64,000 bases of DNA. Origin: Candidatus Nanohaloarchaea archaeon (GTDB lineage: Archaea > Nanohalarchaeota > Nanosalinia > Nanosalinales > Nanosalinaceae). Under the pieces are notes generated by a model. It worked only from the letters and a program-made list of their open reading frames with translations. It was not told the DNA's origin and ran no database searches. Numbering within the stretch: position 1 is the first letter of the stretch; each line of letters begins with the position of its first letter. A program made the translations under genes and the position numbers. Positions 37,592 through 40,488 of the stretch are shown piece by piece. The stretch is from assembly GCA_041640035.1 (NCBI GenBank), contig JBEQBC010000003.1:32001-96000 (forward strand). Direction: 5' to 3'.

Positions 37592-39655
37592 TTACTTAAT
37601 CAAACTTCCTACATCCATCTCCTGATCTGTATCCAGAAGTGATACATTTCCTTCTTCGTCTTCAGCTGCCAGCATCATACATTCACTGACTTCTCCACGC
37701 AGCTCTGCAGGCTCAAGGTTAGCCAGTACAACTACTTTCCGTCCCTCGAGTTCCTCTTTATTGTAGTGGTTCTTCAGTCCTGCACAGGTCTGCAAGGTGG
37801 TTCCGCCCACATCTACCTGTACTTTATACAGTTTATCTGCGTTCGGATGCTCTTCTACTTCAAGAACCTGACCTACACGGATATCCATGTCTCCGAACTC
37901 CTCAAAGCTGACGGTATCTGTGTTCAGCTCTGTTTCTTCCTCAATCTCTTCTTCCTCCTGTTCTACATCGATCTTCTCGAACAGGATCTCTCTTTCACCT
38001 AGTTCTGAGCCACCTGCGATTCCGCCGATGAGCGCATCCGTGAACTCGCTGTCACCTTCCTCTGTATGGATTTCGGTTTGAAGCATCTCCTGGATCTTCT
38101 CGGATGTATCCGGCGTGAAAGGATACATCGTGACGGCCAGTCCTCTGATTATCTGGATCGAGACCTGTATTACCGGTTCTCTTCTCTCCTCATTGTTCCA
38201 TGGTTCTTCCTCGCTCAAGTAACGGTCTCCGAGCCGTGCGAGTTCAAGTGCTTTGTCCAGTGCTTCACGCAGTTCATGTCTCTCGAAAGCGTCCTGATAA
38301 TCGTCGATTATGTCTTCTGCTTCGCTGATTATCTCTCTGTCCTCATATTCGAGTTCTGCGGCCGGTACCTTATTGTCGAACCATTTCTCTGACAGGCTGA
38401 GAGTCCGGTTGACGAAGTTTCCGACTGTGTCGTTGAGTACATTATTGATTGTGGATTCAAAGTCGTCCCATGAGAACTTGGTATCGTGATCCTCCGGAAT
38501 GTTCTTCGCCAGATAGAAACGCCAGTAATCCGGTGGATGCATGTCCAGTGCATCCTCTGTACGCAGTCCTTTTCCACGGGATTTAGAGAACTTGGTATCC
38601 TCGGCCAAGAGGTACTGCTGAATGAACTCGTAATGCGGCAGTGCGTAGTCCTTCTCCTCTGTGGAGCTCCCAATCAGCATAGAAGGCCAGATAACTGTAT
38701 GGAACACTGTGTTGTCCTTCCCGATGGAGTAGTACACATCCGCGTCACCGGTCCAGTAATCCGTCCACTCATCGTCATCCTCGAAAAGTTCACGGGTAAA
38801 GCCGATGTAACCAATCGGAGCATCAAACCAGACATACAAGACTTTATCGCTATAACGCTCCTGGTCCAATTTCTGGACCTCTACGCCTTCTTCTTCGATC
38901 CGTTCGTTTACTCTTTCTACTGGTATATCGAATCCCCAGTCTATATCACGGGTGATACAGCGGTCCTCAAGCTCATCTATAGTATTCATAACCTCTTTCT
39001 TGCTTGAGTCAGGGATCGGTTGTGGATCGGCGTCTTCCAGCCAGTCACGTAGTTCATCCTCGAACTGAGGTAAATCCAGGAAGAGATGTGTGGTTTCCTT
39101 GAACTCTACATCGTTTCCGCCACATATCTGGCATTCGATTTCGTCCAGTTCTTCCGGTTCAACCAGTTTTCCGCAGTCGTCGCACTGGTCTCCTCGGGCT
39201 AGTCCGCCGCAGTGCGGGCAGGTTCCTTCTATGTACCGGTCTGGTAGGAATCTTTCGTCGTTGTTGCAGTATGCTAGTGTTTGTTCTTTTTCTTTGATGT
39301 ACCCGTTCAGGTACAGTTCTGTGAACATGTCGTGTGTCTGTTTCTTGTTGTATTCGCTGTGTGTCTCGGAGTAGATGTCGAAATCCATGTTGAAGTCGTT
39401 GAGTACTTTTTTGACTTTCTCATGGTTCTTCTCTTTCAGTTCTTCGACATCCATTCCCTGTTCAAGTGCTTCTAGCTCTAGAGGTGTACCGTGGACATCG
39501 CTTCCACATACGAACCGGTGGTCTGTGCCTTTCAGATCGTTGTATCTGTTGAATATATCAGCTGGAAGCAGGCTTCCTACAATATTTCCTAGATGTGGTA
39601 CTCCGTGGATATACGGTAGTGCAGAAGTAATCGTAACTTTTTGGTCGTCAGTAAT
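37592..39655 (-). CDS. metG: Methionine--tRNA ligase with C-terminal tRNA-binding domain, non-canonical start (ATT 39655 or ATA 39658)
   Basis: The frame extends upstream of ATG 39454 to ITSALPYIHGVPHLGN (HIGH) and GSDVHG. Also Zn knuckles, YVWFDAPIGY, KFSKS and a Trbp/OB tail. Confidence 0.93.
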   Translation of the reverse strand: MTDDQKVTITSALPYIHGVPHLGNIVGSLLPADIFNRYNDLKGTDHRFVCGSDVHGTPLELEALEQGMDVEELKEKNHEKVKKVLNDFNMDFDIYSETHSEYNKKQTHDMFTELYLNGYIKEKEQTLAYCNNDERFLPDRYIEGTCPHCGGLARGDQCDDCGKLVEPEELDEIECQICGGNDVEFKETTHLFLDLPQFEDELRDWLEDADPQPIPDSSKKEVMNTIDELEDRCITRDIDWGFDIPVERVNERIEEEGVEVQKLDQERYSDKVLYVWFDAPIGYIGFTRELFEDDDEWTDYWTGDADVYYSIGKDNTVFHTVIWPSMLIGSSTEEKDYALPHYEFIQQYLLAEDTKFSKSRGKGLRTEDALDMHPPDYWRFYLAKNIPEDHDTKFSWDDFESTINNVLNDTVGNFVNRTLSLSEKWFDNKVPAAELEYEDREIISEAEDIIDDYQDAFERHELREALDKALELARLGDRYLSEEEPWNNEERREPVIQVSIQIIRGLAVTMYPFTPDTSEKIQEMLQTEIHTEEGDSEFTDALIGGIAGGSELGEREILFEKIDVEQEEEEIEEETELNTDTVSFEEFGDMDIRVGQVLEVEEHPNADKLYKVQVDVGGTTLQTCAGLKNHYNKEELEGRKVVVLANLEPAELRGEVSECMMLAAEDEEGNVSLLDTDQEMDVGSLIK

Positions 39656-39663
39656 TATTGGTA

Positions 39664-39669
39664 CACCTC
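39664..39669 (-). promoter_or_regulatory. Shine-Dalgarno GAGGTG for metG
   Basis: GAGGTG lies 5 nt before ATA and 8 nt before ATT. TTTAAA box at about 39695-39700. Confidence 0.6.
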
Positions 39670-39717
39670 TACCACAGATTTCAAGTTCTGAAGCTTTAAA
39701 GTCTAATCCGCCGACCT

Positions 39718-40488
39718 TTAGACGATCCTGCGCTTCAAACGGTTCAGGTTTGACAACCCGAAATCAGGCTCCTCCATGCCCTCAAGGTCGGAAAGCTCAT
39801 CGCGACTTAACTCTCCTGTCATGATGGCAGCGGTCTTCAGACCAAGCCGGTTACCTAGTTCGACATCAACCTTTCTGTCTCCTACAAGTAGTGTTTTCTC
39901 GTTGAAGTAGCTGAAGTACCTTTTGAAGTACCGTCTGAAAACAGGTGAAGGCTTACCGATATTCTGAGGCTCTGCGTACTCCGATAAAGCGTTGTTCACT
40001 GCTTTCTGGTGAGGCATAGCTTTTTTCGAAGTATGGAAAGTTCTTTCTGTACTGCAGACATACAGGTCGCCGCCTTCATCAAGTATATTGAAAGCTCTAC
40101 GCAGTTTATCATAGTTGAACTGACGGTCAAAACCTACTACAACTGTATCAGCCTCATCACTTACACGGATATCCTCGTCCTCCAGTTCATCGATCAAACC
40201 GGATTCGCCGATCACATAAGCTTCGTTAACATCTTCTTCTGCTAGTTTCTGAGCTGCAACATAACCAGAGGTAATGACATCTTCTTTATCGGTATCTAGT
40301 CCCATAGAGGTCAGTTTCTCTGCGTATCCTTGTCTGGAAAGTCTTGTATTATCTGTAAAGTATTTTACATCGATATCGCTGCTTTTTAGGCTTTGAATCA
40401 CTTCATCTGCTGGGAACACAAAGTCGTCCCAGTTCCAGACTGTCCTGTCCAGATCCAGAAAAACTGTTCTCAGTTCGTTGAAATCCAT
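39718..40488 (-). CDS. HAD-IIA (NagD-like) hydrolase
   Basis: FLDLDRT, FTDNT, IGKPS, VGDR..D. Confidence 0.88.
   Translation of the reverse strand: MDFNELRTVFLDLDRTVWNWDDFVFPADEVIQSLKSSDIDVKYFTDNTRLSRQGYAEKLTSMGLDTDKEDVITSGYVAAQKLAEEDVNEAYVIGESGLIDELEDEDIRVSDEADTVVVGFDRQFNYDKLRRAFNILDEGGDLYVCSTERTFHTSKKAMPHQKAVNNALSEYAEPQNIGKPSPVFRRYFKRYFSYFNEKTLLVGDRKVDVELGNRLGLKTAAIMTGELSRDELSDLEGMEEPDFGLSNLNRLKRRIV

Follow-up and report, generated by a model that had tools for sequence, protein, structure and literature searches.

A conserved AUU or AUC codon as the probable start of metG in Nanohaloarchaea

Introduction

The bacterial gene infC, which encodes initiation factor IF3, reportedly uses an AUU start codon for feedback on the fidelity of initiation. 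Among synthetase genes, yeast ALA1 (ACG) and GRS1 (UUG) are said to have non-AUG starts that add a mitochondrial isoform upstream of a normal AUG, and the thrS-type operator of Escherichia coli is reported to control translation initiation of a synthetase through a tRNA-like structure in the mRNA. Here we consider metG, the gene for methionyl-tRNA synthetase (MetRS), in a window of 64,000 nucleotides (nt) from a Candidatus Nanohaloarchaea archaeon (assembly GCA_041640035.1, contig JBEQBC010000003.1, positions 32,001 to 96,000 of the forward strand). As judged by sequence comparison, metG lacks a canonical start codon (ATG, GTG or TTG) in the genome that holds the window, hereafter G000, and in most of its family, and most likely begins at a conserved ATT or ATC.

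In Haloferax volcanii, about 30% of the putative alternative initiation sites found by ribosome profiling lay at near-cognates of AUG, according to the accessible part of that report, and were set aside by its authors (PMC7261190). A full-text literature search found no description of metG starting at a non-AUG codon, either in Nanohaloarchaeota or across archaea at large, and such a start is not addressed in the accessible parts of PMC8211752, PMC11001535, PMC7531240 and PMC7261190. Every initiation event depends on the initiator Met-tRNA (Met-tRNAi) that MetRS supplies. If family-wide selection of a non-AUG start in metG is real, it would be an archaeal counterpart of bacterial infC, at a different node of the initiation circuit.

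Results

A metG frame without a usable canonical start

The G000 assembly comprises 24 contigs and is estimated to be 89% complete. Four features, in window coordinates, define the problem.

37592..39655, minus strand: proposed metG coding sequence; 687 codons, ATT 39655 through the stop at 37592-37594; class I MetRS with a C-terminal tRNA-binding domain.
39764..39766, minus strand: in-frame TGA, the upstream bound of the open frame, from codon reading.
39452..39454, minus strand: first in-frame ATG; a start here would lose the HIGH motif.
39584..39631, minus strand: HIGH-region motif ITSALPYIHGVPHLGN, codons 9-24 from ATT; its columns are invariant in the alignment.

Read codon by codon on the minus strand, the frame stays open between TGA 39766-39764 and the stop at 37592-37594, and ATG, GTG and TTG are all absent between that TGA and the HIGH region ITSALPYIHGVPHLGN, as an earlier note on this DNA had claimed. 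The residues TSALPY are preceded by 45 open codons with no canonical start among them. A canonical codon first appears in frame at ATG 39454, 103 codons past the TGA, and the frame reading bears out the same note in placing the HIGH region 5′ of it. Across G000 frames of at least 200 codons, the distance from the stop to the first canonical start has a median of 7 codons and reaches 80 or more in only 11 of 693, and the start-free stretch of metG is thus more than chance.

The predicted product is otherwise that of an intact gene. The PF09334 catalytic domain covers residues 8-419 counted from ATT and profile positions 2-391 of 391 (Pfam, E = 1.5e-131), and is accompanied by the PF19303 anticodon-binding domain (8e-12) and the PF01588 C-terminal tRNA-binding domain (7.5e-31). 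Class I MetRS is defined by its HIGH and KMSKS motifs; here they read HGVPHLGN (the HIGH variant HLGN) and KFSKS, within AEDTKFSKSRGKG. Residue 8 from ATT pairs with residue 5 of 1rqg_A, and residue 5 with residue 5 of 1qqt_A, both of them chains of methionyl-tRNA synthetase structures, so that the catalytic domain and the solved structures start within 3-7 residues of ATT. Because the solved chains align there, the N-terminus of MetRS should lie at, or within a few residues of, the ATA or ATT described below. No canonical start can give a functional MetRS at this locus.

Promoter box, Shine–Dalgarno sequence and probable start codon

The region just upstream of the HIGH motif holds the following elements.

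39695..39700, minus strand: TTTAAA, a promoter element that resembles a TATA box and lies within the conserved motif AAGnAGTTTAAAnAATT, from the 5′ region alignment.
39664..39669, minus strand: Shine–Dalgarno (SD) sequence GAGGTG; AGGTG is at least 90% conserved in 36 aligned 5′ regions and is complementary to the 16S 3′ end of relatives.
39656..39658, minus strand: ATA, an alternative near-cognate start, in frame and 4 nt after GGTGT; column not conserved.
39653..39655, minus strand: ATT, the proposed start codon, in frame and 7 nt after GGTGT; column ATT or ATC in 30 of 37 family-clade genes.

The positions that had been proposed for GAGGTG (39669-39664), ATA (39658-39656), ATT (39655-39653) and TTTAAA (39700-39695) all proved right. 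Alignment of 36 family 5′ regions gave a conserved AAGnAGTTTAAAnAATT box, a variable spacer, a near-invariant AGGTG(A) and then AT[TC] 6-8 nt on. AGGTGA starts 24-27 nt past TTTAAA, which by the usual geometry of archaeal promoters would put the SD at the extreme 5′ end of a metG leader some 12-15 nt long. Small-subunit rRNA was not found in the G000 assembly, and the anti-SD was therefore read from three relatives, in which the 16S 3′ end GGATCACCTCC is complementary to AGGTGA. No conserved RNA structure was found around the metG start (RNAalifold, 0 pairs on 36 sequences), and the fold of the G000 5′ region is unremarkable (z = -0.78).

GGTG precedes 37 of the 240 unambiguous canonical starts in G000, most commonly by 6-7 nt counted from GGTGN; a spacing of 4 nt, that of ATA 39658, occurs in just one of these 37. 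In relatives the ATA column reads AAA, GAA, TTT, CCC and others. Because the ATT/ATC column is conserved and its 7-nt spacing equals the canonical mode, ATT 39655-39653 is preferred over ATA 39658 and is most likely the start codon. The earlier note had left the choice between ATA and ATT open behind this SD; the relatives strengthen its case for a non-AUG start, while column and spacing disfavour the ATA half of it.

A probable ATT/ATC start, conserved family-wide

A search of 41 related genomes for metG yielded 30 loci. In the 21 loci of the family itself (L001-L021), the start position holds ATT or ATC (ATY) in 17, ATG in two, TTC in one and GTC in one. A larger set was made from the relatives' loci and added genome records, after removal of 11 near-duplicates, of L084, which was short, and of L093, which lacked the anchor motif; it comprised 47 nanohaloarchaeal metG sequences with four Aenigmarchaeota outgroups, and was analysed by maximum likelihood (IQ-TREE quick search, LG+G4). 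The family clade in this tree groups 37 non-redundant rows with an SH-aLRT support of 100, and its branches total 9.13 changes per column. Its start codons are ATC in 16 of the 37 rows, ATT in 14, ATG in four (two sister pairs), GTG in one (on a very long branch), TTC in one and GTC in one. Parsimony requires at least 14 changes among these states, and together the states and the parsimony count point to repeated T/C exchange with only two gains of G and none of A. Metagenome contigs contributed 34 further non-redundant metG genes, with ATY in 21, ATG in 11 (L173 being ambiguous), GTG in one and GTC in one. Assignment to the ATY class required GGTG at 5-8 nt.

Many loci have an in-frame stop just before the short open stretch: the TGA within AGGTGA in L003, L006, L007, L012 and L016, a TAG that abuts ATC in L077, and a TAA in L166 and L172. 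Earlier starts are impossible in these loci because the in-frame stops lie directly upstream. In a second assembly from the same genus (L002), whose protein is 98% identical, GAGGTGTACCAATAATT is identical. Judged by this agreement between assemblies, the non-AUG start of metG is neither an error nor a private mutation. It had been suggested that metG 5′ ends be aligned across Nanohaloarchaeota in search of a conserved ATA/ATT with its SD; ATT/ATC and the SD are conserved and ATA is not. Nor do all close relatives carry ATG at this position, as had been allowed for: they carry ATT/ATC.

As a control, 83 metG loci from outside Nanohaloarchaea were examined. Eighty of these have a recognisable motif, with a canonical start no more than 40 codons from it in 77; the canonical starts of the outgroups are mostly ATG, 6-13 codons upstream of the motif. 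Three metagenome contigs from other archaeal lineages (L209, L214 and L217) have a metG without ATG, GTG or TTG before HIGH. GGTG is followed by ATA ATA in L214 and L217, and by ...AGG ATA ATT in L209; L215, a relative, has an upstream ATG. The metG query had no true match in two genomes, G001, a 96%-complete member of the genus, and G035, which is 92% complete: it matched other class I synthetases weakly (best E = 3.5e-6 and 2.1e-6, respectively), and metG is either unassembled or missing in both.

Truncated gene calls in the databases

Annotated starts were surveyed in the best 120 MetRS database homologues (P0002-P0121). They lie after TSALPY in 57, within three residues before it in three and further upstream in 60. 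Truncated calls open as MLPADIF..., MAGSVLPAEL... or MPHLGN..., and the 57 of 120 that are cut past TSALPY/HIGH are so because gene callers accept only ATG, GTG and TTG. MetRS consequently appears short or defective in many nanohaloarchaeal annotations. Five NCBI-sourced proteins do have their methionine exactly at the ATT or ATC of the locus: P0012 (L004), P0022 (L014), P0014 (L066), P0027 (L012) and P0096 (L077). P0099, an older record of one organism, is truncated.

The decoding apparatus appears ordinary

The initiator tRNA of G000 is of the ordinary archaeal kind, with a CAU anticodon, A1:U72 and three G-C pairs in the anticodon stem, and an unusual initiator tRNA is ruled out as the cause. 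So is loss of the fidelity factor aIF1, whose domain (PF01253) is present in 36 of the 41 relatives, including all 21 of high quality. Other tRNAs of G000 include an intron-bearing elongator tRNA-Met, tRNA-Ile(GAU), tRNAs with GAC and GAA anticodons, and a tRNA-Ile(UAU) with a 54-nt intron at G000:C1:231893-232022. Only two CAU tRNAs were found in the 89%-complete assembly, the initiator and one that bears an intron, and it is apparently the UAU tRNA, and not a modified CAU species, that reads AUA in G000.

The start column does not have the codon usage of isoleucine within genes. In long G000 open reading frames (ORFs), internal Ile codons are ATC in 49%, ATA in 35% and ATT in 16%; the start column of 31 non-redundant ATY genes has ATC in 17, ATT in 14 and ATA in none. 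This is suggestive of a codon unlike an internal Ile codon, related sequences not being independent.

Other genes with apparent near-cognate starts

A coding-potential scan of G000 found strongly coding sequence ahead of the first canonical start in only six of 843 coding-like ORFs. One is metG, with its apparent start ATT; the other five are listed here, together with the gene upstream of metG.

G000:C4:8797-9351, minus strand, outside the window: NMNAT-like gene (GRFQPFHRGH; L031); AGGTGA, 6 nt, then CTG, right after an in-frame TGA; no canonical start.
G000:C1:165495-166466, plus strand: DUF460-like gene (GIDPG; L236); CTG 9 nt after GGGTGA.
G000:C1:98321-98764, minus strand: OsmC-like gene (L232); no canonical start for 38 codons, likely ATA behind AGGAGG.
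G000:C24:5075-5698, plus strand: HD-domain gene (PF01966); 110 codons before the first canonical start, which itself lies inside the domain.
G000:C4, beginning near plus coordinate 30396, minus strand: 571-codon ORF; AGGAGGGGAAGGAAA (AGGAGG...) then ATA, with an AT-rich box upstream.
39718..40488 of the window, minus strand: HAD-type hydrolase gene upstream of metG (PF13344, PF13242); its TAA, 39720-39718, lies 62 nt before ATT.

Coding-like sequence in the 571-codon ORF extends 65 codons upstream of the first ATG. The HD-domain frame directly follows the in-frame TAA of an upstream ORF (TAA ACA CTG...), an arrangement that suggests a CTG start by reinitiation, or read-through.

Three of these genes could be compared among relatives. 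Of 29 anchored loci of the NMNAT-like gene, 25 start canonically. The four exceptions are G000 and its congener L032, the only two with CTG, L039 from another genus, with ATT 6 nt behind AGGTGA, and L057, with ATT, ATC or ATA after a stop. The DUF460-like gene is canonical in 22 of 29 loci and has CTG or ATA in five stop-bounded ones: the genus has CTG in all three of its genomes, and the remaining two loci have ATA or CTG preceded by AGGTGA. For the OsmC-like gene, both relatives whose locus could be anchored have ATG. Near-cognate starts are therefore tolerated sporadically in this lineage. On this comparison the non-canonical starts of the other three genes do not extend beyond G000 or its genus, apart from sporadic cases in relatives, and metG alone retains its own family-wide. 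The occasional CTG, ATA and ATT behind AGGTGA suggest that the rules for start codons are looser in this lineage than gene finders assume.

Discussion

We conclude that metG is probably translated from an AUY start, AUU 39655-39653 in G000, a reading to which we assign a probability of roughly 0.8. In the mechanism that we propose, a short-leader mRNA would be made from the conserved TTTAAA promoter, and the strong SD near its 5′ end (GAGGUG in G000, AGGUGA in relatives) would pair with the 3′ tail of 16S rRNA, thereby putting AUU or AUC, 6-8 nt downstream, in the P site. The ordinary initiator Met-tRNA (CAU) would read this codon with a third-position mismatch, and full-length MetRS would be made at a deliberately low, SD-dependent rate. 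By a logic like that of infC, with aIF1 as the archaeal fidelity factor, output would rise when start-codon stringency drops, and MetRS output would be coupled to initiation stringency or to the supply of Met-tRNAi. Start-codon stringency in archaea is set by aIF1, according to the accessible part of a review (PMC7531240). Because ATY is retained family-wide in metG, with other genes using near-cognates only sporadically, we argue that ATY has been kept by selection for weak or tunable initiation. That the AUY start serves a true feedback role is a tentative proposal, for which we put the chances below even.

Several observations weigh against parts of this reading. The association of the SD with ATY is not a separate result because the ATY class itself required GGTG at 5-8 nt, and the counts of ATY genes overstate replication because related sequences are not independent. 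Genome-wide in G000, ATT/ATC behind AGGTG[AG] is not enriched before long ORFs (0.125-0.13 against a background of 0.12), so that AUY starts must be rare even there. Two NCBI records (P0068 and P0085) start at an upstream ATA instead. If tolerance of near-cognate starts is a trait of the lineage, the retention of ATY in metG could also reflect a low optimum of expression and not feedback. Finally, four f1-type loci have at the start position, SD + 6 nt, codons that differ from ATG by two bases, without a near-cognate of ATG in the short open stretch: TTC in L008, GTC in L018 and L191, and TTT in L030, which belongs to genus g23. L191, which comes from a metagenome and is not among the 37 rows of the tree, represents an independent lineage (nearest L088, at 82%), by which GTC has arisen at least twice at this position. 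A CAU initiator tRNA should read GUC, UUC and UUU very poorly.

An error of sequencing or assembly, a private mutation or a pseudogene might be suspected in a window taken from a 24-contig assembly that is about 89% complete, and yet dozens of independent assemblies, with both complete genomes and metagenome contigs among them, share the architecture, and the rest of metG is intact with all domains present; we regard this explanation as extremely improbable. We give as little credence to recoding, by which translation would begin at an upstream or out-of-frame GTG or TTG and reach the metG frame by frameshift, stop read-through or reinitiation after a mini-ORF. TTG 39684, GTG 39675 and GTG 39666 do share one alternative frame, ending in TAA 39659-39657 over ATA-ATT, but a slippery sequence is missing, the mini-ORF lacks conservation (in L004, for example, its frame stays open), and in relatives such as L077 and L172 the metG frame is closed just upstream by one to three stops. 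A start at ATA 39658-39656 instead of ATT has in its favour that this codon is in frame, near-cognate and placed after the SD, and that an ATA is the annotated start in two relatives (P0068 and P0085). Its 4-nt spacing, found for one in 37 SD-led canonical starts, and its unconserved column, mostly AAA, GAA, TTT and CCC, make it quite unlikely.

Two further explanations accept the AUY start. Initiation could be by an elongator tRNA with G34, Ile-tRNA(GAU) at AUY, and the protein would then start with isoleucine. Such a mechanism fits a start column that has AUU and AUC and never AUA, for which there is a separate intron-bearing tRNA-Ile(UAU); it also fits the odd variants, GUC (L018, L191) and UUC/UUU (L008, L030, and the position in L024, L026 and L086), which are all NUY, codons read by G34 tRNAs and with which CAU would pair at one or two positions only. 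We nevertheless consider it very unlikely. A normal initiator tRNA and aIF1 are present, the odd variants come from single assemblies or could be replaced by a GTG in frame (L024, L026, L086), and the restriction to Y could equally reflect better tolerance of a pyrimidine mismatch opposite C34. We know of no precedent in archaea for initiation by an elongator Ile-tRNA. If it did occur, the synthesis of MetRS would no longer depend wholly on its own product, Met-tRNAi. A serious contender, if still short of even odds, is that AUY carries no regulatory information: near-cognates would be tolerated behind a strong SD, and ATY would be a frozen accident or would set a low constitutive level. The sporadic appearance of near-cognate starts in the NMNAT, DUF460-like and OsmC-like genes (the scan having found six such ORFs in 843) and the absence of a conserved RNA structure at the metG start (0 pairs; z = -0.78) speak for it. 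Against it stand the presence of ATY in 30 of 37 genes of a clade whose branches sum to 9.13 changes per column, where T and C swapped repeatedly, G arose on just two occasions and A on none, and the reversion or within-genus variation of the near-cognate starts of other genes; since a single substitution gives ATG, neutrality of ATY in metG is hard to reconcile with this pattern.

We therefore favour an AUY start read by the ordinary initiator tRNA. A stronger proposition, that the metG AUY is a purpose-built sensor reached independently in small-genome lineages (Nanohaloarchaeota and possibly those of L209 and L214/L217) and ties MetRS synthesis to the state of initiation, whether by mismatched-codon fidelity control or by Ile-tRNA(GAU) initiation, seems to us unlikely. 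Were the latter true, Ile-tRNA(GAU) initiation would explain the Y-only rule and the GUC and UUC variants. These ideas are directly testable: several nanohaloarchaea grow in co-culture, and Haloferax has reporter genetics.

Comparison with known systems

The closest parallel is with infC, which reportedly shares with metG a conserved near-cognate AUU start, preceded by an SD, in a gene of translation initiation, with a weak start as the point. The nanohaloarchaeal case differs in belonging to Archaea, where aIF1 and not IF3 would be involved, in using both AUU and AUC, with GUC or UUC in a few members, and in that feedback is only proposed. Like ALA1 and GRS1, metG would be an aminoacyl-tRNA synthetase gene translated from a near-cognate codon; the yeast genes have an AUG too, whereas the nanohaloarchaeal AUY is predicted to be the only start that gives an active enzyme. 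With thrS it would share translation initiation as the controlled step of a synthetase gene, but thrS needs a tRNA-like mRNA structure and the metG 5′ regions are without a conserved one (0 pairs). The Haloferax volcanii near-cognates are, in the accessible part of that report, alternative or internal sites of unknown significance (PMC7261190), in contrast to the metG AUY, which would be the sole and conserved start of an essential gene.

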